DNA of 64,000 nucleotides from an uncultured Verrucomicrobiota bacterium (GTDB lineage: Bacteria; Verrucomicrobiota; Verrucomicrobiia; Verrucomicrobiales; V1-33): contig OW818657.1 in NCBI GenBank assembly GCA_942492905.1, forward strand, positions 6,157,511 through 6,221,510, given 5' to 3'. The stretch's first letter is position 1, and each line of letters starts with the position of its first letter. Shown here in pieces: positions 18,009 to 41,552 of the stretch. Made by a program: the position numbers and the translations under genes. A model generated the notes under the pieces. The model saw nothing but the letters and a program-made list of their open reading frames with translations. It searched no databases and was not told the DNA's origin.

Positions 18009-18039
18009 GTGGTCGGGGCGGCCAGATTCGAACTGACGA
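18009..18039 (-). repeat. att core, duplicated 3' end of tRNA-Pro
   Basis: GTGGTCGGGGCGGCCAGATTCGAACTGACGA identical at 18009-18039 and 38577-38607. Confidence 0.95.
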
Positions 18040-18134: not shown

Positions 18135-19259
18135 ATGGCCAGCCTTTGGAAACACCCGCAGAGCAAATACTTCACCGCCTGTTGGACCGATGCCAATGGC
18201 CGGCGCATGAAGCGCTCCACGAAAACGACTGACAAGAAGCTGGCGGATAAGCTGGCCAGGCAGTTCGAAGAGGAGAGCCGCGCCAAGCGCACCGCGAAGC
18301 AGGCCCGCCGAGTTCTGGCCGATATTTACCGCGACCTGTCCGGCGAGGAACTGCCCGCCGTGACGGTCCGGGAATACTTCACGGGCTACGTGGAGCGGAA
18401 GAGGCCGGAGGTTTCCCCTGCCACTCTCGATTACTACGCCGGCCACTCACGCCGGTTTCTGGCGTGGCTGGACAAGAAGGCTGACGCTGATATTTCCGAA
18501 ATCACCAAAACGGAAATCTCTGCCTATCGGAACCATGCCGCCACCAATGCCGGCCCCCGCACCACCAACAACACACTCAAGGCCGTTAAAACCTTCTTCG
18601 CTGCTGCCCGAAAAGATGGCTACCTGACCGATGACCCCGCCGCCGACGTGGACACCGTGCGCGACCGCAGCGAATCCACCCGCCGCCCCTTTACTCTGGA
18701 TGAGCTCCGCGCCCTTATGGCCGTGGCCACCGATGAATGGCGCTCCCTGATTCTCTTTGGACTCTACACCGGCCAACGCTTGGCAGACGTGGCCACCCTC
18801 ACATGGCAAAACCTCGACCTTGCCCGCGAGGAACTTCGCCTCACCACCCGGAAGACCGGTCGCCGCCAAGCCCTCCCCTTGGCTGCCCCGCTGCGGGCGC
18901 ACATCGACACCCTCCCCGCTGGCGACGATCCCAGCGCGGCACTCCACCCCACCGCCGCCGCCACCATTCAGCGCACCGGCCGCAGCGGCATTCTTTCCAA
19001 GTCCTTCGCGGAACTCCTTACCGCCGCCGGCTTGCGCAAAGCCACCGCCACCAAGGAAGAAGGGAACGCCCGCACCAAGCATGAGCTCTCCTTTCACTCC
19101 CTCCGCCATACGGCCACCAGCCTTCTGAAAAATGCAGGCATCCCGCAATCTGTCGTGATGGACTACATCGGCCACGACTCCGCCGACGTCAGCCACGGCT
19201 ACACCCACACCGGCCGCGAAGCCCTGGAGAAGGCCGCCGCCGCTTTTCCAACTCTGTAA
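18135..19259 (+). CDS. int: Tyrosine recombinase / integrase
   Basis: TGQRLAD (R), FHSLRH (HxxR), IGH, GYTH (Y); adjacent to att. Confidence 0.96.
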   Translation: MASLWKHPQSKYFTACWTDANGRRMKRSTKTTDKKLADKLARQFEEESRAKRTAKQARRVLADIYRDLSGEELPAVTVREYFTGYVERKRPEVSPATLDYYAGHSRRFLAWLDKKADADISEITKTEISAYRNHAATNAGPRTTNNTLKAVKTFFAAARKDGYLTDDPAADVDTVRDRSESTRRPFTLDELRALMAVATDEWRSLILFGLYTGQRLADVATLTWQNLDLAREELRLTTRKTGRRQALPLAAPLRAHIDTLPAGDDPSAALHPTAAATIQRTGRSGILSKSFAELLTAAGLRKATATKEEGNARTKHELSFHSLRHTATSLLKNAGIPQSVVMDYIGHDSADVSHGYTHTGREALEKAAAAFPTL

Positions 19260-19268
19260 ATTTCTGAC

Positions 19269-20102
19269 ATGGCCACCAAGAAGAAGCGCAAAACCCCTCC
19301 CACCGTGAAGCGCCTGCAAACGGCGATGGACCGACGAGCAAAAGACATGGGCTGGAGTGAACACGACCGAGCCGCCCGAAGGCGTATGGCGGCAGCCCTG
19401 AGGACCTGCCGGGCACACTATCGGAAGCATCTGCCGCACCATTGGCGATTCATGGTCCGTTCCGCCCGAATCCAGATCCTCCAAGCCGTAAGGGACTGCC
19501 GAACATTGGACGCCTTGCTCCTAGAGCGCAGCTTACCGCCGGTGATGATGGAGGCGTTCACGGAGTATAACCACTCTGGCGCCCTCGCGGGGATTGATTG
19601 CCGCGCCTACGCGGAACTTGCCGTCCTGACCCAAGGCAAAAGACCCTCCTCGAAGGTTTCCGCCTCAGGCGAGCCGAACAAGTTTACGTGGAAATTTACC
19701 TTGGAGCGAGTCCGGGAGGCCCTGAGGGATGGAAGGAGCGTAGAGTATGCCCTCGACCTCTACGCGGACACCATCCAATCCATGGCGCTAAGCGGACAAG
19801 CGGGGTTTTTTGAGGAGCTTGGGGATTTATTCCGCAAACACCGCAGCACCCCATTCAAACGCAGTCTGACAGATTGGATTGTCCGGGCATGGCTTCCGCT
19901 TTGCCTCTGGGAATGCAGCGCTGACGGCCACGAAGCCCACTCAAGATTCTGTCAAGCAGCGGACCTGCTGGAACTGAATTTCCCCGGGGCTGAGGATGCC
20001 GTATTCTACCATCAGTTTATCACGGCATGGAGGAACACGCGGAGCAAGAAAATGAATCCGAAAGCCAGGACTTTCGTAAAACCGAACGGCCAGCGGGATT
20101 AA
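19269..20102 (+). CDS. Hypothetical protein co-oriented with int
   Basis: 277-aa ORF starting 9 nt after int; basic N-terminus; no family recognised. Confidence 0.65.
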   Translation: MATKKKRKTPPTVKRLQTAMDRRAKDMGWSEHDRAARRRMAAALRTCRAHYRKHLPHHWRFMVRSARIQILQAVRDCRTLDALLLERSLPPVMMEAFTEYNHSGALAGIDCRAYAELAVLTQGKRPSSKVSASGEPNKFTWKFTLERVREALRDGRSVEYALDLYADTIQSMALSGQAGFFEELGDLFRKHRSTPFKRSLTDWIVRAWLPLCLWECSADGHEAHSRFCQAADLLELNFPGAEDAVFYHQFITAWRNTRSKKMNPKARTFVKPNGQRD

Positions 20103-20229
20103 TCCGGCCGGCCGGCCAACTGGATAAAGCCCACGAATGGCCAAGGGCGGAAGGCCGTGGATAGGGTGCTATCAACAGAGCGCAACCCACGACGGGGAGC
20201 GGCTGCCTACACCCAACCACCATATCCCG

Positions 20230-20466
20230 ATGATAAAGCCCGAAAAACAAGCCGCCCTCGCCGAGGCCAACACCGCAGGCACCACCCGCCAGCCCGTTGT
20301 GCCCGCCTTTCTCAAGGTCCCCGCCGCCGTCGCCTACTCCGGGATTGGCCGCAGCACCCTATACGAGCTCATGGGAGCGCGGAAAATCAAAAGCCACCGC
20401 ATCGGCGCCGCCCGTGTCATTGACCGGGCCAGTCTCGATGCCTTCATTTCCTCCCAGCCTTCCTAA
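20230..20466 (+). CDS. Excisionase/AlpA-like helix-turn-helix protein
   Basis: FLKVPAAVAYSGIGRSTLYELM...IKSHRIGAARVIDRASLDAFI. Confidence 0.85.
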   Translation: MIKPEKQAALAEANTAGTTRQPVVPAFLKVPAAVAYSGIGRSTLYELMGARKIKSHRIGAARVIDRASLDAFISSQPS

Positions 20467-20614: not shown

Positions 20615-20767
20615 ATGAAATCACCTTCCCACCAGACACACGAACACACCAAGGAGGGAGCCGTCTCCCCTCCGGTCCGCTGGATAACTCCCAGCGAAGG
20701 CACCGACCACGCCTCCCGCCGCAGGATGCCCTCATTTGCCATCATAGAAGGGAGGCAGCGCTTATGA
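20615..20767 (+). CDS. Possible small ORF coupled to the helicase gene
   Basis: 50 aa; stop overlaps the next ATG (ATGA). Confidence 0.3.
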   Translation: MKSPSHQTHEHTKEGAVSPPVRWITPSEGTDHASRRRMPSFAIIEGRQRL

Positions 20768-22179
20768 GTAGCCGCCTTCATCCTGCTGATCAGGAACACC
20801 CCGTTGAACGGAACGCCCTCAGTATCGCCCTACTGCATGGGCCGGCTATTCTGACGAGCCACGGTTTGCGGTATTTCCATTTCACGGGACAGCACGCCAC
20901 GCTTTTCCGCATCCTGGAGGTGGCCGCCGGGGAAACTCCCAGCGGCATTCCCGAAATGGTCCGCATTCAAGCCTTGGCATCGAATGAGCAGGATTCCGGT
21001 ATTCCGGCGGGTGAGGTTGGCCAAGCCTTGGCTTGTCTCACGGAGGGAACCGGGGAAGCCCACAATGCCTCATGGTATGCTGGTAAGATCATAGCCGGCT
21101 GGAAGAGGCGAGAAAGCTTGGCGCTCACCATCCGCTTGGAACAAATCCAGAACGGAGACGCGGAAGGCGACATCGGGCAACTCATCGCCAGGCTGGCCGA
21201 ATTGGCGCGCGACAGCTCCCCGGACCTCACCACAATCAATCTGGCAAACATCCGAGGATGTATGCTGACCGGGGAGCAACTCATGGCCCTGCACGTGCCC
21301 CAGCGCCCCCGCCTGCTGGACGATTGGCTTTGCCGTGGCGACCTGGGATTCATCTTCGCCCCCCGTGGCGTAGGTAAGACGTGGATTTCCATGGCACTCC
21401 CGCACGCCATCAGCGCCGGGGCACCCCTTGGGTTATGGTCCGCAGGGGAAGAGCGCTCCAGCGTGCTCTATCTTGACGGGGAAATGCCGCTCGAACTCAG
21501 CAAAGCCCGGCACACAGGACTGACGCTGGAAGGCGGGAACGTGGCCTATCTCCATCATGACGTGCTTTTTGAAAAACTCGGTCACACCCTTAACATTGCA
21601 GAGCCGGGCCACCAAGAGGCCATTACAGCATTACTCCTCAAGGAAGAACGGAACTTTCTGGTTCTGGACAACTTGAGCTGTCTGGCCTCCGGCGTGGATG
21701 AAAACAAAGGCCTCGCCTACGAACCGATTGCGGCCTGGTTGCTCGAACTCCGACGCCGGAAAATCACCACCATCATGGTCCACCATGCCGGCCGGGAAGG
21801 CTTCATGCGGGGCCACAGCAAGCGGGAGGATGCCGCCTCCTGGATCATCGAACTGCGGGACGCCAAGGACGAGGGGCAGCCGGGAGCGCGTTTTGTGAGT
21901 CATTTTGCCAAGCCTAGCCGGAACACCGGGCAGCACATGCCGGACCTGCTTTGGCACTTCACCACGGACGAAGCGGACGGCCGCACGGCCATCCATTGCG
22001 AACCCGCCGAGGAAAGTGAATACGAAGCCATGCTTCGCCATATCGCCGACGGCGTGGAAACTGTCACCGATCTTGCCGAAATAATGGGTAAAGGAAAAGG
22101 CACCATCAGCAAATGGGTGAAAAGGGGCGAAGCTACCGGCCGGCTCAAAAGGAGCGGAAACCGCATCCTCCCCGCCTGA
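20764..22179 (+). CDS. Replication protein: DnaB_N-like region + AAA_25/RecA-like helicase + C-terminal wHTH
   Basis: Walker A APRGVGKT, VLYLDGEM, Walker B LVLDNLS, HHAG...RGHS; C-terminal DLAEIMGKGKGTISKWVKR. Confidence 0.85.
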   Translation: MSSRLHPADQEHPVERNALSIALLHGPAILTSHGLRYFHFTGQHATLFRILEVAAGETPSGIPEMVRIQALASNEQDSGIPAGEVGQALACLTEGTGEAHNASWYAGKIIAGWKRRESLALTIRLEQIQNGDAEGDIGQLIARLAELARDSSPDLTTINLANIRGCMLTGEQLMALHVPQRPRLLDDWLCRGDLGFIFAPRGVGKTWISMALPHAISAGAPLGLWSAGEERSSVLYLDGEMPLELSKARHTGLTLEGGNVAYLHHDVLFEKLGHTLNIAEPGHQEAITALLLKEERNFLVLDNLSCLASGVDENKGLAYEPIAAWLLELRRRKITTIMVHHAGREGFMRGHSKREDAASWIIELRDAKDEGQPGARFVSHFAKPSRNTGQHMPDLLWHFTTDEADGRTAIHCEPAEESEYEAMLRHIADGVETVTDLAEIMGKGKGTISKWVKRGEATGRLKRSGNRILPA

Positions 22180-22303: not shown

Positions 22304-22735
22304 TATGCGGAATCGGCCCGATATTTGAGGGATTCGAGGAATTCAGGCCAAGTTTTCAGTAATCTAGAAAAATCACAAACTGGCCGCTCCTGAACTGTAG
22401 CGAGCCCACTTGGTAAAGCGCTGGTTGAAGCAGCAGCCAGCCTTGGGCACCCCTCTCCTGATTGCCCATTCGCTGGCTCCCACCCGGATCAGGTGCTTGG
22501 TCTAGATCTGCAATGGAGGCAATCGATGTCCCGGTCGGTGCGCTGCCAGCCGCGCTGGCGGAGCGTTCCGTCAGCCCATTCACAGCTGAAACCGGCACGG
22601 GATGCGGTCACTCCCCGTGTGCCCCCCACTTAGGTTCCTTTGAAAGGCGGCATCAGCCGGATACCAAGCCCGGCCTTCTGAAAATTTGACTTACGGAACA
22701 ATCTGTGAAGCTGTTCTTCCAACGTCCAATCTCCC

Positions 22736-23236
22736 ATGACCACGTACCCATCTTCTACCGCCCTCCGCCGTTTGCTCGGCTGGACGATGATGCTGGCATA
22801 CCTGGCGGGAATTCAAGGTTGGGCGCCGATGGCATTTGGTGCCGTCGCAGCGTTGCAGCATGGGCATGAGGTCAGTCTGTCGCAGGAAAACGGCGACTGG
22901 CACCTTGTGTTGAGCCACCTGGATCATGAGGATTGCGATGCTGAAGAGGCCCCGCACGCGGAAGATCATCATGGCGCCGAACTCGCGGCTGCGGAAGATC
23001 ACCATCACGGCCCGGCCCACGTTTTTTGCTTCGCTTCTGAAAATTCCAATGCCTTGGGGGCTGCGGGACTCTCCGCGCCCAAGGTCAATTTTGAGGCGGG
23101 GTTGGTTGAAAAATGCGCACGTCCCGAATTCCGCATCTACCCGGTGCCGGTGTATCTGGATGGCGTGGCGGCACGCCCGCCGCCGGGCAAACCGGCGTGG
23201 CTGGTGTGTCTGAGGACAACCGTGCTCATCGTTTGA
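22736..23236 (+). CDS. His-rich exported protein preceding czcC (CzcI/DUF2946-like position)
   Basis: N-terminal TM; HLDHEDC...HAEDHHG...DHHHGPAH; ends LRTTVLIV. Confidence 0.7.
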   Translation: MTTYPSSTALRRLLGWTMMLAYLAGIQGWAPMAFGAVAALQHGHEVSLSQENGDWHLVLSHLDHEDCDAEEAPHAEDHHGAELAAAEDHHHGPAHVFCFASENSNALGAAGLSAPKVNFEAGLVEKCARPEFRIYPVPVYLDGVAARPPPGKPAWLVCLRTTVLIV

Positions 23237-23251
23237 GATAAAAGCCTGACC

Positions 23252-23299
23252 AACCCGTGATTCGCTCCCCCGTGGAGCCGCTTCGCGGGTTTTTCGTTT
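23252..23299 (+). terminator. Terminator-like hairpin between the His-rich ORF and czcC
   Basis: AACCCGTGA/TCGCGGGTT outer stem, GCTCC/GGAGC inner stem, then TTTTCGTTT. Confidence 0.5.
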
Positions 23300-23390
23300 G
23301 TGCGCGGCCCGCTGGCCGTGCGTTCCGGGCTGCGCTCTGCCCGCTTTGACCTCAACGCGCATCATTCTTTTTCCCAAAATCATTCCGCTC

Positions 23391-24728
23391 ATGAATCCCT
23401 TTCCAATAACCATAAGCTGCCGCGCTCCCCGCGTGGTGGCGATGGTGTTTTCCCTGTTGGCCTCCCCCGCTTTCGCGGACGTGGAGCCTCTCTACAAACT
23501 TCCCGCAGCTCCGAACCCATCCGGCACGGTGAGCCTGCGGCAGGCCATCGGTTTGGCCCTCTCCAATCATCCCTCCTTGGCCACGTTCACCCTGGACGTG
23601 CGGGTGGCCGAAGCCCGGATGATCCAAGCCGGGCTGAAACCCAATCCCCAACTCAATTTCACCTCGGAGAACCTCCCCGGCTCCGGTCCCTACAAGGACG
23701 GGGAACTGATGGAGAACACACTTCAATTGAGCCAACTCGTGGAGCTGGGCGGCAAACGTGATGCCCGCCTGCGTGAAGCTGAAGCCGGGCGCAGCGTGGC
23801 GGAGTGGGCCTGGCAGGTGCGGCGCATTGAGGTGCTGCGTGATACCGCACAGGCCTTCGTGGCGGTGCTGGCTTCCCAAAAGCAGGTGCAGCTCGCCGAA
23901 GAAACTGCCGGTCTGGCGGCAAAGGTTACTCCGATGACGCAAAAGCGGGTGGAGGCGGGTAAAGCCAACGCCGTGGAAGTCACCCGCAGCAATGTGGCGG
24001 TGGCATCCGCCAAGATTGAATTGGAGCAGGCCAAGCGCTCGTTGGCGTCGGCCCGCACCAATTTGGCGGCGCTCTGGGGGGCGCGGACGGCCAACTTTGA
24101 TAGTGTCACCGGCGACTTTGGCTCGGTGAAAACCATTCCGGTCTTTTCCACTCTGGTGGCGCAAATCAAGAGCCACCCTGAAATCACACGCTGGTCGGCG
24201 GAGCGCGCCCAACGCGAGGCTGTGCTGGCGCGGGAGTATACTCTGGCTAAAGCGGATGTCACCGTCTTCGGTGGGCCGCGCACTTTGGGGAAAGCGGAGG
24301 AAATCACCTTCACGCTGGGTTTTTCCATTCCGCTGCCGTTCAGGAACCGCAATCAGGGAGCCATCGCGGCAGCGGAGGTGGAAATCGCCAAAACCGACAC
24401 GGAGCGGCTGACTTCGGAGATGAGTGTCTTCACGCAGCTCAGCGCTGCCTATCAAGTATTGCAGCGGGCCGCGAATGAAGTCGAAATCCTGAACAAGGAC
24501 GTGCTACCCGGCGCAGCGGAAGCCGAAAAAGCGGTGACGGAAGGTTATGAAGCCGGCCGCTTCACCCAGCTCGAAATCCTCGATGCCCGCCGCACCCTGA
24601 TTCAAGCCCGCCACCAGCAACTCCGCGCCCTGTCCGATTATCATCAGGCCGTGGCTGAAATCGAAGCCCTCACCGCAGGTCCGGTCAATTTGTCAGCAGC
24701 CGGTGCCGCCTCCCCCTCTTCCAAGTAA
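23391..24728 (+). CDS. czcC: TolC-family outer membrane factor of heavy-metal RND efflux
   Basis: Signal peptide, QAGLKPNPQL, LSQLVELGGKRDAR, GYEAGRFTQLEILDARR. Confidence 0.9.
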   Translation: MNPFPITISCRAPRVVAMVFSLLASPAFADVEPLYKLPAAPNPSGTVSLRQAIGLALSNHPSLATFTLDVRVAEARMIQAGLKPNPQLNFTSENLPGSGPYKDGELMENTLQLSQLVELGGKRDARLREAEAGRSVAEWAWQVRRIEVLRDTAQAFVAVLASQKQVQLAEETAGLAAKVTPMTQKRVEAGKANAVEVTRSNVAVASAKIELEQAKRSLASARTNLAALWGARTANFDSVTGDFGSVKTIPVFSTLVAQIKSHPEITRWSAERAQREAVLAREYTLAKADVTVFGGPRTLGKAEEITFTLGFSIPLPFRNRNQGAIAAAEVEIAKTDTERLTSEMSVFTQLSAAYQVLQRAANEVEILNKDVLPGAAEAEKAVTEGYEAGRFTQLEILDARRTLIQARHQQLRALSDYHQAVAEIEALTAGPVNLSAAGAASPSSK

Positions 24729-24749: not shown

Positions 24750-26030
24750 ATGAACTTTAAAGCGATCATCAACGCAGGCATTATCGCCCTGCTTCTCATC
24801 GGCGGCGCACTGGCCGCCAAGCGAATCCTCGGCCTCGAATTCAACAGCCACGACCACGCGGATGGCCACGGCGCGGCTCCCGCGGCCGACGATCCCAGTA
24901 AGCGGCGCGGGCCGCATGGCGGGCGCTTTTTTGGCGAACCTGACTTCGAGTGCGAAGTGCAGATTTACGAGCCGGAAGGCGTCACCCCGGAGTTCCACGT
25001 TTACTTCTACAAGGACGGGAAGCCCTATGATCCCAAGGATGTGAAGACCGTGATCAAGCTGGAGCGGATCAACCGCACCGACACCATCAACTTCAAGCCG
25101 GAGGCGGATTACCTGATCGGCGACGGTCCCGTGGTGGAGCCGCATTCCTTCCACGCTTTCGTGACGGTGCAGCACGCCGGGAAAACCTATGATTGGAAAT
25201 TCGATTCGATCGAAGGCCGTGCCGAAATGCCGGAAGAAATCCTCGCCCGGGCGGGTGTGGAAATGATCAAGGCCGGTCCAGCAAAAATCCGCCAGAGTGT
25301 GAATCTGCGGGGGCGCGTGCGGGTGAATGAACAAACCCGCACCAGCATCATGCCGCGTTTTGATGGGCTGGTGAAGGAGATCAACAAGGAGCTGGGGGAC
25401 AGCGTTCAAAAAGGTGATGTGCTGGCCACCGTCGAAAGCAACGACAGCCTCCAGCCTTACCCGGTGAGGGCGGAAATCGCCGGCACGGTCATCGAGCGCG
25501 AAGTGAAGCTGGGAGAATTTGTCAGCAATCAGCGCCCCATGTTCGTCATTGCCGATCTGGGAAATGTCTGGGTGGACTTCATCGTTCACCGCAAGGACTT
25601 CCCGTTGCTGAAGCCTGACCAGTCCGTGACCATCAACCCCGGCGAAGGCATGGAGCCCATCGACGCCAAGCTGAGCTATCTCTCACCGTTCAGCGCGGAG
25701 GGGTCGCAAACCATGCTGGCCCGCGCCGTGGTGCCCAATGCCAAAGGTGATTTGCGCCCCGGCCTGTTTGTCTCGGGTGATGTGGTTTATGAGGAAGCCG
25801 ATGTGCCGGTGGCCGTGAAGGCCAGCGCCCTGCAAAACTTCCGCGACTGGGACGTGGTTTTTGTCCGGGTCGGCAATCTGTTTGAAGCCATGCCCTTCGA
25901 GATCGGCAGGCGGGATGCCGAGTGGATCGAGGTGAAGGAGGGCATCCCCGCCGGGATTTCCTACGCTGCCGAAAACAGCTTCATCATCAAAGCGGATGTA
26001 ATGAAAGGCGGAGCCACCCACGACCACTAA
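24750..26030 (+). CDS. czcB: RND periplasmic adaptor subunit
   Basis: His-containing N-terminal extension, GPHGGR, VIADLGNVWV, LRPGLFV, C-terminal HDH. Confidence 0.9.
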   Translation: MNFKAIINAGIIALLLIGGALAAKRILGLEFNSHDHADGHGAAPAADDPSKRRGPHGGRFFGEPDFECEVQIYEPEGVTPEFHVYFYKDGKPYDPKDVKTVIKLERINRTDTINFKPEADYLIGDGPVVEPHSFHAFVTVQHAGKTYDWKFDSIEGRAEMPEEILARAGVEMIKAGPAKIRQSVNLRGRVRVNEQTRTSIMPRFDGLVKEINKELGDSVQKGDVLATVESNDSLQPYPVRAEIAGTVIEREVKLGEFVSNQRPMFVIADLGNVWVDFIVHRKDFPLLKPDQSVTINPGEGMEPIDAKLSYLSPFSAEGSQTMLARAVVPNAKGDLRPGLFVSGDVVYEEADVPVAVKASALQNFRDWDVVFVRVGNLFEAMPFEIGRRDAEWIEVKEGIPAGISYAAENSFIIKADVMKGGATHDH

Positions 26031-29225
<3,195 letters not shown>

Positions 29226-29238
29226 TCCCCCAAATCCC

Positions 29239-30522
29239 ATGCATATCCTGCGCCACGATTCACCCCGTTTCCGCTCCCAACTGAAAAGCCTGAACCGGTC
29301 GGCAGAGGCCGCGCCGGAGGTGGCGGATACGGTCAGCAACATCATTGCCGAAGTGCGCCGCCGCGGGGATGCCGCCGTGCTGGAATACACTGCGAAATTC
29401 GGAGGCCCCGCGCTGAAGCCTGCCGGGATGCGGGTGACGGCAGCGGAATTTCAGGAGGCGGATAAGGCTACCAGTGACGAAGTAAAAGCCGCGCTCCATC
29501 TCGCCCATAAAAATGTGCGGGACTTTGCCCGGCGCGGGCTGCGGAAGGACTGGCACATGAAAAACCGTCAGGGGGTCCGGGTGGGTGAGTCGTTTCACCC
29601 CTTCGGGCGCGTCGGCATCTACGTGCCCGGAGGGAATGCGCCGTTGGTTTCCACCGCCATCATGACCGTGACCCTGGCAGCCACCGCAGGGGTGCCGGAA
29701 ATCGTGGTGGCGACCCCCGCGGATGCCGCAGGCAAAGTGCATCCGCCGTTGCTCCACGCGCTCCAGCTCGCCGGGGCGACAGAGGTTTACAGGATCGGTG
29801 GAGCGCAGGCCATTGCGGCTCTGGCCTACGGCACCAAAACCATTGCGCCGGTGGTCAAAATCTTCGGCCCCGGCAATGCCTATGTCGTTGAAGCCAAACG
29901 TCAGGTTTTCGGAGCGGTTGCCATCGACCTCCTGCCCGGGCCGAGTGAAATCATGGTCATCGCCGATCAGACCGCTGATCCGGCCTGCCTCGCGGCTGAC
30001 TTGCTGGCGCAAGCCGAACACGGTCACGGCAGCGTGGTCTTTGTGACGGATTCGGGAACTATCCTGATCGAAATTCAGGCTGAACTTAAACAACAAATGG
30101 CTGAGGCCCTGCGCGGGGAACATCTGGCCCATGTCGTTGGCGATGGTTTGTTCCTGGTGCTGGTCGCGCAGCTTGGCGATGCGGTGGCCATCGCCAATGA
30201 TTTCGCGCCGGAGCATGTTGCCATTGTCGCGGAAAACGAGGATGAACTGGCCAGCGGCATCCGCACTGCCGGAGCCATTTTTCTGGGGCACTGGTCCCCA
30301 GTGGCAGGCGGTGATTTCGTCGCCGGTCCCAGCCATGAGCTTCCTACCGGCGGCTCCGGAAAGTCTTTTTCCGGGCTGACCGTGGATCAATTCCAGCGCC
30401 GCACCAGCACGGTCCGCTTCAGCCGGAAATCTCTCGGGAAATCCCTTGATGCAATCCAAACCATCAGCGCCGTCGAAGGGCTGGACCGCCACGGAGTTTC
30501 CGCAGCCATCCGCATCAACTAG
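29239..30522 (+). CDS. hisD: Histidinol dehydrogenase (island-borne)
   Basis: VGIYVPGG, IFGPGNAYV, PGPSEIMVIAD, DLLAQAEH, APEH, GDFVAGPSHELPTGG. Confidence 0.93.
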   Translation: MHILRHDSPRFRSQLKSLNRSAEAAPEVADTVSNIIAEVRRRGDAAVLEYTAKFGGPALKPAGMRVTAAEFQEADKATSDEVKAALHLAHKNVRDFARRGLRKDWHMKNRQGVRVGESFHPFGRVGIYVPGGNAPLVSTAIMTVTLAATAGVPEIVVATPADAAGKVHPPLLHALQLAGATEVYRIGGAQAIAALAYGTKTIAPVVKIFGPGNAYVVEAKRQVFGAVAIDLLPGPSEIMVIADQTADPACLAADLLAQAEHGHGSVVFVTDSGTILIEIQAELKQQMAEALRGEHLAHVVGDGLFLVLVAQLGDAVAIANDFAPEHVAIVAENEDELASGIRTAGAIFLGHWSPVAGGDFVAGPSHELPTGGSGKSFSGLTVDQFQRRTSTVRFSRKSLGKSLDAIQTISAVEGLDRHGVSAAIRIN

Positions 30523-30594
30523 CAAATACCTCCGGATTCTGCTTATTTCAAAAGCTTCAACGCGCCGCCTTTTTTATTCCCCCACTTTTTCCTG

Positions 30595-31818
30595 ATGAAC
30601 CCCGCAACCCATCCCTCCCTCTGGAAGCACCGCATCTTCCAACAGCTTTTTTGGGCACATGCGCTCAGCCTCACCGGCAGCGGGCTGACTTCGCTCGCTT
30701 TGGGCTTGCTGGCCCATGAGCTGGTCGGGGCATCCGCCTCCACCGTGCTGGGCTTCACGCTGATGATCCGCATCATCGTTATTGTGCTTTGCTCTCCCTG
30801 GGCTGGAAAACTCGCAGACCGTTTTGGAGCCCGGCAGGTCATGGTGTTCTCCGACATCCTGCGTGTGGTGGTGATGGTGGGGTTCTTCTTCGCCGATTCC
30901 GTCTGGCAAATCTACGCCTTGGCGGTTCTGCTGAATTTCGGGTCGGCTATCTTCACTCCGATTTACCGGGCAGTCATTCCGGGGGTGGTAACAAAAGAGC
31001 AGTATCCGAAAGCGCTGGCGGTCGGGTCCATCGCCTATGACACGGCAAATATTCTTGGCCCATCGCTGGCCGCGCTTGTCATCTCCCTTATCGGATTCCG
31101 GGGCAACTTCATCGCGGATGGCCTGACATTTTTAGGCAGTGCGGCCTTGCTGATCGGCCTGCCCCGTCTGGCCAGTGAAGTGGCAGGACAGGCAAAAAAA
31201 GCGCCCACTTCCGTGCGGCATGGGTTGACCGCAATGATCCGCCGCGCCCCGCTGCTCCAGTCTGTTCTGCTCGCCCTGCAAACCAGTATCGGCGGGGCTT
31301 TTGTCATCGTGGCGACCATCGATTTCGTGAAAAACGATCTCCGCCTCAGTGACTCCGCCTATGCCTGGGTGATGGCCGCATTCGGGATTGGCTCTGTGGC
31401 CGGGGCCATGATCTACGCCAGATGTTCGGTGCGCGTCAGGAATGGTTTGGTTACCGCTTCCGCGCCGGTCATGTTGGCGGGATTGATTGCCGTCGCTGTC
31501 TGGCCGCAATACGCCGCTTTGTGCTTGGCCTGGTGGTTCATCGGTGCGGGCTACAGCACCCTCGGCATCCGCGGCAGCGAATTGCTCGCCGCCAACAGTT
31601 CCGGGGAGGAACGGGCCCACATTTACGCCGCCCACTTCGCCCTGAGCCATGCTGGCTGGGGACTGACCTACCCCTTGGCCGGTTGGCTTACCTCAAACCA
31701 GGGCTTTGTGCCTACAGCCTGGATCTTCGCCGGGATTCTCCTGGTGATTTCATTGGGAGTTTGGAACCGCCAAAACAAGGTGAATCACGAAACTCCTCCG
31801 GCTCCGGACAAATCATAG
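30595..31818 (+). CDS. nreB: MFS transporter, NreB/NrsD-like nickel exporter
   Basis: LALGLLAHELVG..LG..L.I, AAHFALSHAGWGLTYPLAGWL match the NreB family; ~12 TMs. Confidence 0.75.
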   Translation: MNPATHPSLWKHRIFQQLFWAHALSLTGSGLTSLALGLLAHELVGASASTVLGFTLMIRIIVIVLCSPWAGKLADRFGARQVMVFSDILRVVVMVGFFFADSVWQIYALAVLLNFGSAIFTPIYRAVIPGVVTKEQYPKALAVGSIAYDTANILGPSLAALVISLIGFRGNFIADGLTFLGSAALLIGLPRLASEVAGQAKKAPTSVRHGLTAMIRRAPLLQSVLLALQTSIGGAFVIVATIDFVKNDLRLSDSAYAWVMAAFGIGSVAGAMIYARCSVRVRNGLVTASAPVMLAGLIAVAVWPQYAALCLAWWFIGAGYSTLGIRGSELLAANSSGEERAHIYAAHFALSHAGWGLTYPLAGWLTSNQGFVPTAWIFAGILLVISLGVWNRQNKVNHETPPAPDKS

Positions 31819-31879: not shown

Positions 31880-32800
31880 TTATTTAGCAGGGGGCACTTT
31901 GCCCTGAGCTTCCAAGGTTGCTTTTAGGCTCGCGGCCAGCTGGGAGGCGGGGCCTTTCCCCCAGTAATGCAGGAAGAGATAGCGGGGCTGCTCATGGGTC
32001 ATGTGATGGTGAATGGCCACGATGTTGATGCCTTCTTTCCGCAGTGTTTTCAGCACTGGCTGGAGTTCGTCTTCCAGCACGCAGAAATCGCCACAGACCA
32101 CAGCATTGTCGTCGGTGCCGGCAAAGGCGGCCCAGGTGTTGACGCCCATTTCCTTGGCCATGTCGCACCCGCAGGGCATCTTTGCCGTGCGCCCGAACAC
32201 GGCTTTATACATGCCGTCCTTCACCTGTCCCTTCGCGCCCAGCATCTGATCGAGCGGGGCGGCGGTGATGGCGTTGCCGGTGGGGGCGAAGGCTTTGCCG
32301 AAAACCCGCTGCGGCTGCGGCTGGCCGGCGCGGACCGACTTCACCGCATCCAGGGCGGCCCGGACGGCCGTGGCCAGCTTCACGGTCCCGCCTTCTCCTC
32401 CGATGTGCATGAAGTAGACCTTGGGATCATCCGCGAAGAAGTGGTTATGCAGCGCGGTGACACTGAGTCCGCCATCAAGCGCGGCGGACATGGCAGCATT
32501 CACCTCGTCCTCGAAGAGCACGAAGTCACCGGCAACCATCACCTCAGCCTTCACTCCAGGGGTGAAGGCGGCCCACGTGGTGAGGCCCATGAAGGGCGGC
32601 ATGGTCCAGCCATCCACGGCGATTTTGACATCCGTGCGCGGGCTGGTGATTTTGAACACGGCCTCGGCTTCGTTCACGGTGCCTTTCAAGCCGGTGAGGG
32701 ATTCGATTTGAGCGCTATCCAAGGCGGAGGAAGCCACGGACGCACTGAGGGCGAAGACGACGGCAGCAACAATTTGGCGGATCATAAGGTGGGCATTCAA
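31880..32800 (-). CDS. DUF1259 (LppY/LpqO-like) tandem-domain exported protein
   Basis: Two repeats: GDFVLFEDEVN...VTALHNHF...YFMHI and GDFCVLEDELQ...IVAIHHHM...LFLHY. Confidence 0.85.
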   Translation of the reverse strand: MNAHLMIRQIVAAVVFALSASVASSALDSAQIESLTGLKGTVNEAEAVFKITSPRTDVKIAVDGWTMPPFMGLTTWAAFTPGVKAEVMVAGDFVLFEDEVNAAMSAALDGGLSVTALHNHFFADDPKVYFMHIGGEGGTVKLATAVRAALDAVKSVRAGQPQPQRVFGKAFAPTGNAITAAPLDQMLGAKGQVKDGMYKAVFGRTAKMPCGCDMAKEMGVNTWAAFAGTDDNAVVCGDFCVLEDELQPVLKTLRKEGINIVAIHHHMTHEQPRYLFLHYWGKGPASQLAASLKATLEAQGKVPPAK

Positions 32801-32865: not shown

Positions 32866-33783
32866 ATGCCGCTTCCTTCCTGGCTCATTCTGCTTTACAC
32901 GCTGCCAGCCTCTCAAGCGGCGGCGCGGCTCAGCTTTTGGCGGCAATTGAAGCGGCTGGGGGCCGTTGCCCTGAAAACTTCAGCCTATGTGCTGCCGCAA
33001 CGCCCGGAACAGGAGGAATCCCTGCAATGGCTGGCCCAGCAAATCCGGCAACAGGGCGGCGAAGCGACCCTGCTGCGGGCGGCACAGGTGGATACGCTGT
33101 CCGTCAATGAAGTGACAGACCTGTTTCAGTCTGCCAGAACCGCCGACTACGAGGAACTGCTGGCCGCCGCGGCTGCTCTCAAACCTCCCGGCGTCCGCCA
33201 GCCAGTGGAACCGGCGGAGGTGGAGCGGCTGAAAAAGCGGTTCCTCGCCATCAGGAAGATCGACTTCTTTGATTGTCCCGCCGCCGGCAAGGTGCGGCAG
33301 GCGCTGGAAGCACTGGCTCCGGCCAAGCCTTCCGTTAAGAAAAGCGGTCTGGTCAGGGTAGCCAACTATCAAGGCCGCACCTGGCAGACCCGGCCCCGCC
33401 CGGAATTGGACCGCATCGCCTCCGCCTGGTTGATCCGCCGCTTCGTTGACAAGGCCGCCGTCTTTGTCTTTGCGGCGGAGCGGACGCCTGACCGGGCGGG
33501 CGTGACCTTCGACATGGTGGATGCCGATTTCGGGCATGAAGGGGACGACTGCACGTTTGAGACCCTGGTGCGGCGGTTTTCGCTGAAGGCCCCGGGCCTG
33601 CCGGAGGTGGCGGAAATCGTCCACGCCGCCGACATTGAGGACGGTAAGTTTCCCCGCACGGAAGGTTCCGGCTTGCTGTGCGTGCTGCGGGGCTGGGCCC
33701 GGCAGGGCCTCGCCGATGAGGAGATCCTGCGGCGCGGCCTGGATCTCATGGACGGCCTCCACCTTTCCCTGACCGCCCCTTGA
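32866..33783 (+). CDS. chrB: Chromate resistance regulator ChrB
   Basis: WLILLYTLP..ARLSFWRQLKRLGA; WQTRPRPELDRIASAWLIRRFVD; FGHEGDDCTFE. Confidence 0.9.
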   Translation: MPLPSWLILLYTLPASQAAARLSFWRQLKRLGAVALKTSAYVLPQRPEQEESLQWLAQQIRQQGGEATLLRAAQVDTLSVNEVTDLFQSARTADYEELLAAAAALKPPGVRQPVEPAEVERLKKRFLAIRKIDFFDCPAAGKVRQALEALAPAKPSVKKSGLVRVANYQGRTWQTRPRPELDRIASAWLIRRFVDKAAVFVFAAERTPDRAGVTFDMVDADFGHEGDDCTFETLVRRFSLKAPGLPEVAEIVHAADIEDGKFPRTEGSGLLCVLRGWARQGLADEEILRRGLDLMDGLHLSLTAP

Positions 33784-33789
33784 TTTCCC

Positions 33790-35130
33790 ATGGACCCGCA
33801 GCCCGACCCCTCCTCCCGCCGCCCTGACTTTCCTTCGTTGAGGGAGGCGGTGCGTTATTGGTTCACCCTCGGTTGGATCAGCTTCGGCGGACCGGCGGGG
33901 CAGATCGCCATCATGCACAAGGAACTGGTGGAGAAGCGGCGGTGGATTTCCGAAAGTCATTTCATGCACGCGCTGAATTTCTGCATGTTGCTGCCGGGGC
34001 CGGAGGCGCAGCAACTGGCCACCTACCTCGGCTGGCGGATGCACGGCTGGCGGGGCGGGGTGGCGGCGGGGGCTTTGTTTGTGCTGCCCTCGGTATTCAT
34101 CCTCTTTGCCCTGAGCTGGCTCTACATGGCGGGCGGTCATCTGCCGTGGCTCGCGGCGATCTTTTATGGGCTGCTGCCTGCGGTGATCGCCGTGGTGGCG
34201 GAAGCCGTCCTCCGGATTGGCAAAAAGGCGCTGAAAAGCCCCGCCCTGTGGACGCTGGCGGCGTTGTCGTTTGTCGCCATATATCGTTACCAGGTCTCCT
34301 TCGTCTTCATTATCCTGGCAGCGGCGCTGACCGGCTGGATCGGCCACCGGCTGGCGCCCGGGCAGTTCCCCGCTGGAAAAGGCCACGGAGACAAGTCCGG
34401 GAATGATGACAGGGACTATCTGGCATTGCCGCCTTCCCCGCGCAGCACCTGGAAGCGCTCCGCCGGTGTCATCACACTGTGTCTTTTGTTATGGTGGACG
34501 CCCATTCTGGCCTTGGGGGCCTGGCTGGGCTGGCAGAGCACGGGGTTTGCCCAGGGCGTGTTTTTCAGCAAGGCGGCGCTGGTCACCTTTGGCGGAGCCT
34601 ATGCCGTGCTCCCTTACGTGGCCCAGCAGGCGGTGGAGAAATACGGCTGGCTGTCCCATCCGCAGATGATGAGCGGCCTGGGCCTGGCGGAAACCACGCC
34701 GGGACCGCTCATCATGGTGCTGCAATTTGTCGGGTTTGTCGGCGGCTGGCAGTTCCCCGGCTCCCTCAGTCCGCTGGCGGGGGCCACCGTGGGGGCGCTG
34801 ATTACCACTTGGGCGACCTTCATCCCGTGCTTCCTCTTTGTGTTCCTCGGCGCTCCCCAGGTGGAGCGTCTGCGGGAGCAGCCCCGGCTGGGTGCCGCGC
34901 TGACAGCGATCACTGCCGCCGTGGTGGGAGTGATTCTGAACCTCGGGGTCAAATTCGCGGAACATGCTCTTTGGCCGTCCCCGTTTTTGAAATTCGATTG
35001 GTTCGTGGCGTCGGTGGCTTTGGCGGCATTTGTCGCCATGCAGAAGTTCAAAATCGGATTGATGCCAACCATCGGCGCGTGTGCCGTTTTAGGGTTGGTG
35101 TGGCGATTCTATGGCGCCTCTCCTTATTGA
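33790..35130 (+). CDS. chrA: Chromate efflux transporter ChrA (long-chain), island copy
   Basis: SFGGPAGQIA, LPGPEAQQ, TFGGAY, ETTPGPLI. Confidence 0.95.
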   Translation: MDPQPDPSSRRPDFPSLREAVRYWFTLGWISFGGPAGQIAIMHKELVEKRRWISESHFMHALNFCMLLPGPEAQQLATYLGWRMHGWRGGVAAGALFVLPSVFILFALSWLYMAGGHLPWLAAIFYGLLPAVIAVVAEAVLRIGKKALKSPALWTLAALSFVAIYRYQVSFVFIILAAALTGWIGHRLAPGQFPAGKGHGDKSGNDDRDYLALPPSPRSTWKRSAGVITLCLLLWWTPILALGAWLGWQSTGFAQGVFFSKAALVTFGGAYAVLPYVAQQAVEKYGWLSHPQMMSGLGLAETTPGPLIMVLQFVGFVGGWQFPGSLSPLAGATVGALITTWATFIPCFLFVFLGAPQVERLREQPRLGAALTAITAAVVGVILNLGVKFAEHALWPSPFLKFDWFVASVALAAFVAMQKFKIGLMPTIGACAVLGLVWRFYGASPY

Positions 35131-36921: not shown

Positions 36922-37130
36922 GAGGTCACGGTGGGTTACCAAATTCTAAATACTCAAGACGAATTCAGCGGCGGCCGGCCGGCTTTGCCCGTGTGGAACT
37001 TGCGCGGCAACCTTACTTCCATGAGTCCCGATTGATGGTAATCACCAGCCCGGGGTCTGTCGCCTCCCACACCAAGCGTACTTGATATTACTATTGTGCT
37101 GCCCTGAGATTTGCCACTAGTCTGATCAAA

Positions 37131-38051
37131 ATGGCATCTGAGTCCCCACTAAGTTTTCCAATGGATCTGAAACAACTGCAATCCTATTTAAAGATTGGCA
37201 AGCTGCTGATAAAGGTCATTAGTCCCCTAAAAGAGAAGATCACGCACGCGATACACTGGGAAACGACACGCCAAATGCACCATGGCTGTATCCATGCTAT
37301 ACGGCGATTCAGCACAGTTACCAGATCGCGTGGACCTGATCACTGGGACACCGAGCCAGTTACCGAAGGCATCAGAGAGTTGGCCTCCCATCTTCTTCAT
37401 GTTCCTAAGCAAAAGCTCCACGTTACTTTAAAGCTCATTGCACCAACAGGGGGCAACCCTGCCGACCTGACGGTTTCAACTTTAGGCCGGACAGGCGCCT
37501 CAAGCCGGCCAGAAGATGCCGGGGATTCTGCTTTGAACCGGGTGGGCAACAACTCGGACTTCGCTTCGCTTCTTGGCTGTTCAGATGGCGTCACGGACTG
37601 GAAACGTGCATACAACGTTTTTCACTGTCCCAATCTAGAGAAAAGGCAGAAATATTGCTGTAGCCGAACGAACTTTCTGGATTTTTACCGAACTAGTCTG
37701 GTTTTCCCCCTTCGTGTTGAAGTTTTGAATTCCAATCAAACCGAGACGTTCGGGTTTGTTACTATCGATTCCATGTCAGCGAATATCTTTTCTCTGCCCG
37801 ATATTTTTGATTTCGGCGGTGACAAGCTGGATGAATACGCTACAATCATCGACGCAAGTTGCTTGATTCACGCTATCGCCACAGTCGTAGACACACTGGC
37901 CATGATCATGCGATCCGGTTGGGGCGCCAACAAGACAGCCCACCCCCGAAAAGTTTCCCGCCCAGCACTACCAGCCAATCCAACACCCAATGTCACAACA
38001 AAACACATCAAGCAAAAGGCTCTCAGGCAACGCCGCACAGGGGGCGATTAA
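37131..38051 (+). CDS. Hypothetical lower-GC protein with a GAF-like domain
   Basis: NSDFASL...FHCPNL...FYRTSLVFPLRV...FGFVTIDS pattern resembles a GAF sheet. Confidence 0.65.
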   Translation: MASESPLSFPMDLKQLQSYLKIGKLLIKVISPLKEKITHAIHWETTRQMHHGCIHAIRRFSTVTRSRGPDHWDTEPVTEGIRELASHLLHVPKQKLHVTLKLIAPTGGNPADLTVSTLGRTGASSRPEDAGDSALNRVGNNSDFASLLGCSDGVTDWKRAYNVFHCPNLEKRQKYCCSRTNFLDFYRTSLVFPLRVEVLNSNQTETFGFVTIDSMSANIFSLPDIFDFGGDKLDEYATIIDASCLIHAIATVVDTLAMIMRSGWGANKTAHPRKVSRPALPANPTPNVTTKHIKQKALRQRRTGGD

Positions 38052-38538: not shown

Positions 38539-38577
38539 CTCTCTCGGACCGAATTGATAATCCCTTGAAAATCAAGG

Positions 38578-38654
38578 TGGTCGGGGCGGCCAGATTCGAA
38601 CTGACGACTTCTTGCTCCCAAAGCAAGCGCTCTACCAAGCTGAGCTACGCCCCG
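38578..38654 (-). tRNA. tRNA-Pro(TGG), integration target
   Basis: CGGGGCGTAGCTCAGCTTGGTAGAGCGCTTGCTTTGGGAGCAAGAAGTCGTCAGTTCGAATCTGGCCGCCCCGACCA; 77 nt, encoded CCA. Confidence 0.98.
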
Positions 38655-40667: not shown

Positions 40668-41552
40668 ATGCCAGACGCTCCCCGCCAACTCAAACTCGGC
40701 CTGCCCAGTGGCAGCCTGCAGGAACCGACCCTCGCCCTTCTCGCCCGCGCTGGCTTCAGCGTTTCCGGCGCGTCCCGCAGTTACCGCCCCGCCGTGGACG
40801 ACCCGGAACTCGAAATCCGCCTGCTCCGCGCCCAGGAAATCGGCCGTTATGTGGACCATGGGTTCCTCGATGCCGGCATTACGGGCCGCGACTGGATCAT
40901 CGAAAATGACGCCAAGGTCGAATACATCTGCGAATTGCCCTACAGCCGGTCCACCCCCCGCCCGACCCGCTGGGTGCTCGTAGTGCCGGAGGATTCGCCT
41001 ATCCAGACGGTGCACGACCTGCAGGGTAAACGCATCGCCGCCGAGGCGGTCGGCCTGACCAAACGCTATCTGGAATCCAAGGGCGTCCAGGCGGAAGTGG
41101 AGTTCTCCTGGGGTGCCACCGAGGTGAAAGTCCCGGAATTGGTCGACGCCATCGTGGATATCACCGAGACCGGTTCCAGCCTGCGTGCCAACCGCCTCCG
41201 CATTGTGGATACCCTCCTGGAGAGTTACCCGCAATTCGTCGCCAGCCCCGCCGCCATGGCCGATCCCTGGAAGGCAGATAAAATTGCCCGCATCGCCATG
41301 CTCCTCAAAGGAGCGCTGGATGCCCGGGGCAAGGTCGGTCTGAAAATGAACCTTCCCAGCAACCGGGTCAAAGCGCTGGTCGAAGCCCTCCCCAGCCTGC
41401 GCCGCCCCACCATTTCCCCGCTCTATGACAGCGACTGGGTCAGCGTGGAAACCGTGATTGATGAATCCATCGTCCGGGAGATCATCCCGCAGCTCAAAGC
41501 GCTCGGAGCCGAGGGTATCATCGAGTATCCGCTGAACAAATTGGTGCATTGA
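40668..41552 (+). CDS. hisG: ATP phosphoribosyltransferase, long form
   Basis: [45 protein letters not shown]. Confidence 0.96.

Follow-up and report, generated by a model that had tools for sequence, protein, structure and literature searches.

A histidinol dehydrogenase gene of a mobile genomic island, recurrently associated with metal exporters, as a candidate metal-stress isozyme

We found that a 64,000-nt stretch of DNA from an uncultured Verrucomicrobiota bacterium (hereafter, the window) carries, embedded within a metal-efflux operon on a genomic island, an intact gene for histidinol dehydrogenase (hisD), and that this gene belongs to a clade whose members recur among metal exporters. 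As judged from its sequence, the island ORF is predicted to encode a catalytically competent second histidinol dehydrogenase, which would convert L-histidinol to L-histidine in an NAD-dependent four-electron oxidation. The gene is of foreign origin and was probably brought in by horizontal transfer, as part of a Ni/Co/Zn-efflux cluster that travelled on an integrative island. The best explanation we can offer, to which we assign a probability of roughly one half, is that the product is a metal-stress HisD isozyme, a second copy that keeps histidine synthesis running. Descriptions of heavy-metal resistance islands usually centre on pumps, binding proteins and regulators; in the present case it is a biosynthetic enzyme that is conserved, selected and horizontally mobile inside metal-efflux clusters.

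The island and its efflux operon

The island spans 20.6 kb at a tRNA-Pro gene and is bounded, in the window sequence, by 31-bp repeats. Its left border (18009-18039) is the direct repeat GTGGTCGGGGCGGCCAGATTCGAACTGACGA, which is identical to the 3’ end of tRNA-Pro and has an exact second copy at 38577-38607, within the tRNA-Pro(TGG) gene (38577-38654, - strand; detected by ARAGORN and Rfam) that constitutes the integration site and the right border. The tyrosine integrase of the island (18135-19259, + strand) contains the Pfam Phage_integrase domain and a SAM-like N-terminal domain. An integrase near one border, together with repeats that copy the 3’ end of a tRNA, characterizes a tRNA-integrated genomic island, and the earlier note on this DNA, made from the sequence letters, was right to place hisD inside a mobile element. 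Its statement that no other his genes are present is correct if limited to the island, since the window also contains a long-form hisG (~40668-41552), 2 kb beyond the island. An unoccupied integration site was not seen, as the closest relatives with readable contigs showed no synteny in the region upstream of hisG. The island additionally carries a chrB-chrA chromate resistance pair (32866-35130, + strand; Pfam ChrB_N/ChrB_C, and TIGR00937 for the chromate efflux transporter).

Three genes on the + strand precede hisD and make up, in one putative operon, a CzcCBA-type RND system with its heavy-metal (HME-RND) pump, membrane fusion protein and outer-membrane factor. They encode a CzcC/IhpA-like outer-membrane factor (23298-24728; Pfam OEP, with the NCBIfam IhpA-like model scoring below its cut-off), a periplasmic adaptor of the CzcB-like membrane fusion type (24750-26030; Pfam HlyD_D23/HlyD_3, and TIGR01730 above its cut-off) and the CzcA-type heavy-metal RND pump (26043-29225; TIGR00914 (CusA/CzcA), 1596 bits as compared with a cut-off of 701). 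The real start of the outer-membrane factor is probably downstream of 23298, as its homologues align from ~23526. Just upstream of the efflux operon, a 166-aa ORF with a hydrophobic N-terminus (22736-23236, + strand) yields a translation rich in His and Asp (HGHE...HLDHED...HAEDHH...EDHHHGPAH); it had no match in a Pfam search and is possibly a metal-binding accessory protein.

Downstream of hisD lies a gene for an MFS exporter (30595-31818, + strand; Pfam MFS_1/MFS_3). This protein shares 37% identity across 97% of its length with the ‘putative NreB’ of pKAZ5 and with homologues from Klebsiella plasmids, which adjoin NreA-like repressors in annotated nreA-nreB modules, and the label ‘NreB-like’ given to it previously is thus a reasonable one. 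The reference NreB has a His-rich tail, whereas the C-terminus of the MFS protein in the window is not His-rich, and no NreA/RcnR-type repressor adjoins its gene.

The spacing within the operon is tight, with 13 nt between the czcA stop codon and hisD and 72 nt between hisD and the MFS gene, all on the + strand and exactly as first described; the clade loci at large are similarly operon-like, with intergenic gaps mostly below 100 nt. Between czcA, hisD and the MFS gene we detected no terminator or promoter motifs above the shuffle expectation, and the hisD-MFS spacer was unstructured, folding no better than it did after shuffling. No Ni/Co or other riboswitch emerged when the island and eight related loci were scanned with Rfam, nor did we recognise a metal-sensing regulator, either in the island or at related loci. 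The induction of this operon by metal is therefore an assumption.

The island HisD and its clade

The island-borne HisD (29239-30522, + strand; 427 aa) scored 462.1 bits against PF00815 (cut-off 27) and 449.1 bits against TIGR00069 (cut-off 243.8). It retains E325-H326, corresponding to Glu326-His327 of the E. coli enzyme, which we take from structural work to be the catalytic pair, as well as H366, E413 and L415, the counterparts of the presumably substrate-side His367, Glu414 and Leu416. When aligned to E. coli HisD (PDB 1K75), positions Gln259, His262, Glu326, His327, Asp360, His367, Glu414, Leu416 and His419 were all conserved, in agreement with the initial reading of the catalytic and Zn motifs as intact. 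The ligands of the octahedral Zn site, Gln259, His262, Asp360 and, from the partner subunit, His419 in E. coli numbering (PMC11382572), are present as Q258, H261, D359 and H418 and are invariant across the clade. The loop at residues 132-136 reads G-N-A-P-L and keeps its final Leu, as in the HisD motif G-S-A-P-L and not as in the motif G-R-Y-A/S-H of HpsN, a sulfopropanediol (DHPS-3-) dehydrogenase of the same fold family (PMC11382572). An antisense ORF of 421 aa (29260-30525, - strand) was taken to be a shadow ORF that arises from the GC-rich frame of hisD.

The island protein therefore resembles housekeeping HisD (EC 1.1.1.23; E. coli 1K75, Brucella 4G07) over its full length, sharing the Zn ligands, the catalytic Glu-His, the substrate-binding residues and the GxAPL loop. 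It differs in being a second copy carried on a mobile island, and in belonging to a separate clade that was seen only inside metal-exporter clusters. A candidate for the second chromosomal hisD, for which the earlier note had proposed a check, was found in a vertical-type, Verrucomicrobiales-type gene whose product (P0389; 432 aa) has all motifs and is 56% identical to the island copy; it is recorded on a contig of 6,308,862 bp, and the contig with the HisD and HisG of the window also measures 6,308,862 bp. The two enzymes are a natural pair from one genome and directly testable.

The island HisD is 67-69% identical to the housekeeping HisDs of Chthoniobacterales. Its clade was monophyletic in 100/100 neighbor-joining bootstraps, with the Chthoniobacterales-type HisDs as the sister group, whereas the host resembles Verrucomicrobiales, and the HisD native to it clusters with Verrucomicrobiales-type sequences. 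So far the clade has a narrow scope; it is rare, falls within Verrucomicrobiota and comprises ~14 clusters when grouped at 90% identity. No more members were present among the matches listed from genome and metagenome contigs, which were housekeeping-type and at most 67-69% identical, and none of the 385 plasmids with hisD homologues in a plasmid collection carried a member of the island clade (all <45% identity).

Exporter neighbourhoods of the clade

In all distinct clade contexts that could be read (9/9), hisD formed part of a co-directional array of metal-exporter genes, which were of the CzcCBA, P1B ATPase, RcnA/NicO, HupE/UreJ and MFS types. As controls we used 160 housekeeping-type hisD loci from the genome and metagenome contig matches listed, two of which had metal-exporter neighbours (2/160; Fisher p = 2e-13, a value that reflects an association with the clade and not nine independent events, since the nine contexts share ancestry). 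We accordingly regard the linkage of hisD to exporters as a single ancestral capture that was later maintained. The arrangement in the window is no one-off, a concern raised at the outset, as every readable clade member lies among Ni/Co/Zn exporters and the gene orders differ.

The gene directly after hisD encodes an inner-membrane exporter in 8/9 contexts: an MFS protein in the window and in locus L182, a NicO protein in L002, L010 and L011, and a P1B ATPase in L001, L005 and L014. The hisD-MFS pair is kept in L182 and L183, and the neighbours include RcnA-family Ni/Co exporters (NF007454, 364 bits; cut-off 195) and P1B heavy-metal ATPases. The neighbouring modules have been shuffled while hisD was retained. 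As compared with the window, L182 is 94% identical in HisD and 93% in the MFS protein but just 69% in CzcA; in L010, CzcA is 89% and HisD 71% identical; and the RND pump of L005 is just 31% identical. The hisD genes of the clade evolve under purifying selection, with dN/dS values of 0.066-0.135 among unsaturated pairs.

These patterns bear on the possibility that hisD is a maintained passenger, captured once by accident and kept for a benefit unrelated to metal, such as gene dosage or the rescue of poor histidine synthesis. The single origin of the clade and the failure to find a metal regulator in the island or the related loci would both fit such a history. We nevertheless consider it unlikely. 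The gene is under purifying selection and has stayed among exporter genes, in their orientation and closely spaced, despite the shuffling and with CzcA identity down to 31%, and a metal-unrelated benefit would not explain its retention in one kind of cluster; moreover, the clade has gained histidines, and its changes cluster next to the metal site (see below).

The regular position of an exporter immediately after hisD raises another possibility, that of product-coupled export modelled on GAPDH-ArsJ. HisD and the downstream exporter would cooperate, with histidine made on site beside the inner membrane capturing Ni or Co, and either the Ni/Co-histidine complex or histidine itself, for chelation in the periplasm, being handed over to the MFS, RcnA or ATPase exporter. 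The precedent is a close one in layout, as GAPDH-ArsJ also comprises a paralogue of a core housekeeping enzyme beside an MFS exporter in a resistance operon for a toxic element, often a mobile one (PMC5930303, PMC9601151). There, however, the enzyme chemically couples arsenate to a metabolite and ArsJ exports the product, while for the island HisD such coupling would be hypothetical and the partner varies between MFS, RcnA and P1B ATPase. The partners come from three families that are not related to one another, and members of each are known to transport metal ions unaided; such variability argues against a specific enzyme-transporter pair; the loss of two histidines per metal ion would in addition be costly. 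Our analysis thus leaves a cooperation of this kind, and product-coupled export in general, quite unlikely; if true, histidine-coupled export would parallel the arsenate pathway of GAPDH-ArsJ, with an amino acid as its basis. In a related and less radical version, the island HisD would have been adapted to keep working when Ni or Co occupies its metal site; if true, this would make it the first case of target replacement by a gene of a heavy-metal resistance island.

Substitutions around the metal site and the proposed role

The island HisD clade is defined by 27 substitutions, several of which lie beside active-site motifs. All clade members have Asn at N133, a position of the Zn-adjacent GxAPL loop that is Thr or Ser in housekeeping HisDs; V327 adjoins the catalytic Glu325-His326; S373 and S378 follow His366; and at R417/A420 the Arg and Ala that flank the trans Zn ligand His418 have changed places (LDRHGAS vs LDAHGRS). 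These signature changes are conservative (L to V, A to S, T to N), and their nearness to the metal was judged from sequence. The clade is also enriched in histidine, with a mean of 14.3 His per protein as compared with 9.3 and 8.9 in two housekeeping groups, and gained His account for 4 of the 27 clade-defining residues (p = 0.002). Depletion of cysteine, another conceivable adaptation, was not observed, as the clade did not differ in this respect from the Chthoniobacterales-type HisDs.

Such substitutions could mark a change of function, in which an enzyme with the HisD fold would now oxidise another amino alcohol or aldehyde, for instance in the synthesis or modification of a metal chelator. 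The family has already given rise to one non-histidine enzyme, HpsN (PDB 8V35, 8WWE), which shares the octahedral metal site with the island HisD and exemplifies how the family can diversify to a new substrate, its activity depending on the bound divalent metal in the order Co > Zn > Mn ... > Ni (PMC11382572). Yet the residues that bind the substrate and Zn and perform catalysis in E. coli HisD are all conserved in the island protein, which lacks both the G-R-Y-A/S-H motif and the sulfonate/Zn-binding His of HpsN, has a HisD-type GxAPL motif, scores far above the TIGR00069 equivalog cut-off and is far closer to true HisDs than to HpsN (287 vs 210 bits against PDB chains). None of the nine clusters (0/9) contained companion biosynthetic genes, and we consider a dehydrogenase with a new substrate improbable.

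The gained histidines might instead point to a moonlighting role, in which the His-enriched protein acts mainly as a cytoplasmic Ni/Co sponge or as a chaperone for the exporters. We hold this to be very improbable, as the extra histidines number just about five and are scattered along the sequence, and as the catalytic and NAD-side motifs, which a pure binding protein would not need, are strongly constrained. The notion that the gene is the ordinary, sole hisD of its genome, located beside a czc operon by chance, is refuted by its position in an att-bounded island, its foreign clade, the presence of P0389 and the recurrence of the exporter neighbourhood (9/9 vs 2/160), even though housekeeping hisD genes in Verrucomicrobia often stand alone outside a his operon.

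The reading we favour, that of a metal-stress HisD isozyme, would operate as follows. The island hisD would be made under metal stress because it is presumably transcribed together with the efflux genes, and its product would secure the final reaction of histidine synthesis, which depends on metal. This step would maintain free histidine as a buffer for Ni, Co, Cu and Zn, and the activity would also prevent histidinol from building up. In the sub-mechanism we favour, the isozyme would back up the chromosomal HisD, whose octahedral N/O site (two His, one Asp and one Gln, plus the substrate) is of a kind prone to occupation by the wrong metal (Ni being the worst in the related HpsN) and could also lose its Zn while the efflux pumps run. 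With its clade-specific changes around this site, the island copy may tolerate metal stress better than the chromosomal enzyme, or else it may simply add to the enzyme dose. A benefit to the cell, co-transcription, metal induction and altered metal selectivity are what we infer for the island HisD, and the constant company of exporters suggests that cells stressed by metals protect histidine synthesis as a weak point.

The earlier note had proposed two roles for the gene, boosting histidine as a chelator or backing up a mis-metallated HisD. Flux through the histidine pathway is controlled at HisG via feedback inhibition, and boosting histidine through hisD alone is therefore the weaker of the two. 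A back-up for a mis-metallated HisD appears to fit better, because the clade-specific changes surround the metal site. Feedback control at HisG is also treated in a study in E. coli (PMC12724342) in which deletion of hisG or hisD left the sensitivity to Ni+Cu unchanged in the medium used, a result that counts against our proposal. Histidine has otherwise been described as a metal buffer, with his genes required under metal stress (PMC12724342, PMC13001215, PMC4871644), and the present finding connects the genetics of bacterial efflux with the buffering by histidine that is known from yeast, fungi, plants and several bacteria. Residues N133, V327, S373, S378 and R417/A420, together with the gained His, provide a shortlist for how an octahedral Zn site may be protected from the wrong metal.

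The known czc/cnr/ncc RND, nreAB and rcnA determinants supply the kinds of genes that surround hisD in these clusters (CzcCBA-type RND, NreB-like MFS, RcnA-family NicO and P1B ATPases), and in the searchable literature we found no description of hisD as an accessory of czc, nre or rcn clusters. A parallel case in which extra HisD capacity is tied to Ni comes from Ni-hyperaccumulator plants of three families, where histidinol dehydrogenase is over-expressed (bioRxiv 10.1101/420729); in these plants it is a native eukaryotic gene that is up-regulated, and not a mobile paralogue dedicated to efflux operons.

Identity of the island hisD and a second copy in the host

The ORF at 29239-30522 (+; 427 aa) is, judging by its sequence, a full-length histidinol dehydrogenase (PF00815, 462 bits; TIGR00069, 449 bits, cut-off 243.8). 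Residue alignment with E. coli HisD (PDB 1K75) showed that Gln259, His262, Glu326, His327, Asp360, His367, Glu414, Leu416 and His419 are all kept, so that the catalytic and zinc motifs reported in the earlier note are indeed present and intact. Every testable feature of HisD membership was found in the protein, and the motif test for its homologue HpsN failed, this motif being missing. An antisense ORF of 421 aa (29260-30525, -) spans the whole gene with the same GC3; we treated it as a shadow of hisD, which is GC-rich.

The gene follows a czcCBA-like set encoding an outer-membrane factor (23298-24728, +), a membrane fusion protein (24750-26030, +) and a CusA/CzcA-family RND pump (26043-29225, +; TIGR00914 1596 bits, cut-off 701), and precedes a gene matching the MFS_1/MFS_3 transporter family (30595-31818, +). 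ORF coordinates confirmed the spacing and orientation noted earlier, with 13 nt separating the czcA-type stop from the hisD start, 72 nt separating the hisD end from the NreB-like MFS ORF, and all three on the + strand. A motif scan detected no terminator or promoter motif between the three genes, and the spacer was unstructured; because of this and the short gaps, hisD is probably co-transcribed with the efflux genes.

These genes lie in a mobile element, as had been proposed. The 31-base 3' part of tRNA-Pro(TGG) (38578-38654, -; the sole tRNA in the window), at 38577-38607, recurs exactly at 18009-18039 and thus delimits a 20.6-kb integrative island that encodes a tyrosine integrase (18135-19259). 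The claim that no other his genes are present held for the island and failed for the window: a chromosomal long-form hisG (HisG + HisG_C; ~40668-41552, +) lies ~2 kb beyond the island's right border. Its listed ORF starts at 40461, and homologues point to a 294-aa protein. Only 10 kb accordingly separate the gene for the first step of the histidine pathway from that for the last, of which hisD alone is island cargo.

The relatives of the window's HisG are from Verrucomicrobiales. In a related MAG (GCA_947460575.1), HisG is 95% identical to that of the window, and HisD (locus L061, on the adjoining contig) shares no more than 58% identity with the HisD of the window. Searching with the L061 protein and listing the members of its cluster, we found the second chromosomal hisD whose existence the earlier note had asked about: P0389 (432 aa) falls in the Verrucomicrobiales-type cluster, shares 56% identity with the island HisD and retains every catalytic motif. 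P0389 and the island protein (P0361) are each recorded on a single NCBI contig, in both cases exactly 6,308,862 bp long, and the contig given for the window's HisG has this length too. From this match, which is very unlikely to be a coincidence, we infer that both copies reside in the same host and that the island hisD is not its only one.

A HisD clade among metal exporters

Among the best 120 database matches, the window's protein and the HisDs P0001-P0013 formed a separate clade. In a neighbor-joining tree that also included Verrucomicrobiales-type HisDs and used the E. coli and Brucella proteins as outgroups, this clade was monophyletic in 100/100 bootstraps. Its sister group comprised Chthoniobacterales-type housekeeping HisDs (joint group monophyletic in 90/100), and P0389 grouped with the Verrucomicrobiales-type sequences, a placement that makes the island copy a xenolog. 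One and the same HisD (P0006), in near-identical loci (L002 and L003), was found in two MAGs whose names, Prosthecobacter sp. and Chthoniobacter sp. 12-60-6, place them in different orders, consistent with either recent transfer or a binning or naming error.

Comparison with 226 Verrucomicrobial housekeeping HisDs yielded 27 clade-defining positions. These include N133, within the Zn-adjacent G-x-A-P-L loop that separates HisD from HpsN (PMC11382572); V327, the residue that immediately follows the catalytic Glu325-His326 (present in 93-100% of the clade versus <=1% of the other proteins); two serines, S373 and S378, within the loop following His366; and a swap on either side of His418, the trans Zn ligand (clade LDRHGAS, others LDAHGRS). 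Histidine gains account for 4/27 positions (H120, H168, H298 and H351; binomial p = 0.002), and the clade averages 14.3 histidines per protein versus 9.3 and 8.9 in two housekeeping groups. Cysteine content did not differ from that of the sister group.

Every clade member with a readable contig occurred among metal exporters, on the same strand and with gaps mostly <100 nt; the neighbourhood, which the earlier note had allowed might be a one-off, is recurrent. The gene orders, with HisD identity to the window, are OEP-CzcB-CzcA-hisD-MFS (window, 100%), OEP-CzcB-PII-CzcA-x-HupE/UreJ-x-P1B ATPase-hisD-MFS (L182, 94%), CzcA-hisD-ATPase-NicO (L001, 89%), x-hisD-ATPase (L014, 87%), CzcA-hisD-x-...-ATPase (L012/L013, 85%), OEP-CzcB-CzcA-ATPase-HupE-x-x-hisD-NicO followed by cop genes and ArdC (L002-L004, 77%), OEP-CzcB-CzcA-x-x-hisD-ATPase (L005, 73%), CzcB-CzcA-ATPase-x-hisD-NicO (L010, 71%) and CzcA-x-HupE-x-hisD-NicO (L011, 69%). 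The ATPases are P1B heavy-metal pumps. The NicO proteins encoded after hisD (L001 6359-7693, L002 11379-12734, L010 9287-10711, L011 6451-7878) are long (444-475 aa), contain 26-35 histidines and belong to the RcnA family of Ni/Co exporters (NF007454 364 bits, cut-off 195).

Identity to the window varies among modules: in L182 hisD is 94% and MFS 93% identical and CzcA only 69%, in L010 CzcA is 89% and hisD 71% identical, and the RND pump of L005 shares only 31% identity. The modules around hisD have thus been reshuffled, and throughout hisD has remained within the array. Its dN/dS of 0.066-0.135, in pairs with unsaturated dS, indicates purifying selection.

Possible role of the island enzyme

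The zinc of HisD is held octahedrally, its ligands being two His, one Asp and one Gln together with the substrate. A wide range of divalent metals can occupy the site of HpsN, whose activity ranks Co > Zn > Mn ... > Ni (PMC11382572). Ni, Co, Cu and Zn form complexes with free histidine, and in several organisms the genes of the His pathway are important when cells are under metal stress (PMC12724342, PMC13001215, PMC4871644); histidinol dehydrogenase is over-expressed in Ni-hyperaccumulating plants (bioRxiv 10.1101/420729). We propose that the island HisD would cover for the chromosomal enzyme when the latter is impaired through mis-metallation or through losing Zn during pump activity, sustaining the histidine pool and avoiding histidinol build-up. 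The benefit could come either from an intrinsically more metal-tolerant enzyme or from mere added dose. Since pathway flux is set by HisG, an increase brought about by hisD alone is less plausible. Scans of the island and related loci revealed neither a metal regulator nor a riboswitch.

Coupling to export, modelled on the enzyme-exporter pair GAPDH-ArsJ (PMC5930303, PMC9601151), would fit the inner-membrane exporter located directly after hisD in 8/9 contexts, but these exporters span three unrelated families. A new substrate is at odds with a HisD active site that is conserved in full and with the lack of biosynthetic partner genes, and a role of the His-enriched protein as a metal sponge with a gain of only about five histidines and catalytic residues still under constraint. 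A metal-unrelated passenger would leave retention in one single kind of cluster unexplained. Chance adjacency of a housekeeping hisD is refuted. Against 9 of 9 contexts of the clade, even distant homologues of these transporters flanked hisD in only 2 of 160 further housekeeping-type loci listed (Fisher p = 2e-13, which, since the nine contexts share ancestry, marks a maintained association and not nine independent events). P0014 and P0017, just outside the clade, have unrelated contexts.

The neighbours of the island hisD are ordinary czc-, nre- and rcn-type determinants; the window's MFS is 37% identical to those of annotated nreA-nreB modules but, unlike them, has no adjacent NreA-like repressor. 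The new element is the dedicated HisD xenolog conserved within such clusters, for which full-text literature searches gave no description; it is a case of the known recruitment of a metabolic-enzyme paralogue into a resistance operon. The clade is rare and so far confined to Verrucomicrobiota; the comparative evidence is strong, and the putative role is directly testable and bears on mis-metallation.

Other genes of the clusters, the island and its flanks

The N-terminal part of the RcnA-family exporters includes a stretch similar to the N-terminal domain of CzcB (~25-35% identical to CzcB proteins). In three clusters HupE/UreJ is followed by a conserved small protein without a family match (L002 8894-9307, L011 4431-4937, L182 7489-7920; 137-168 aa, 56-64% identity among the loci), and a second small family recurs at L002 9578-9964, L005 13769-14173, L011 7980-8327 and L012 7651-7947.

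Besides the czcCBA-like, hisD and MFS genes, the island carries, directly upstream of the efflux operon, a His-rich 166-aa ORF (22736-23236, +) whose product has a hydrophobic N-terminus, is densely set with runs of His/Asp/Glu and gave no match in a family search; a longer antisense ORF over it (22691-23413, -) is probably spurious. A DUF1259 (PF07485) gene (31880-32800, -) lies between the MFS gene and a chrB-chrA pair (32866-35130, +). With a chromosomal ChrA-like gene (Pfam Chromate_transp; 44220-45848, +), two chromate transporters occur within 13 kb, and chrB-chrA, like the island hisD, duplicates a chromosomal function. Close to the integrase, an ATPase of the AAA_25 type that ends in a winged-helix domain (20764-22179, +) and several ORFs without family matches (19269-20102, 20137-20466) are probably the island's replication or mobilisation module. 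At the island's right end, a low-GC segment (37001-38000) has a GC of 0.50 versus 0.61 for the window and holds an unassigned 306-aa ORF (37131-38051). Further downstream, the product of 48929-55708 (+), 2259 aa long, combines six Calx-beta domains with several PKD domains and is probably a large protein of the cell surface or of adhesion.
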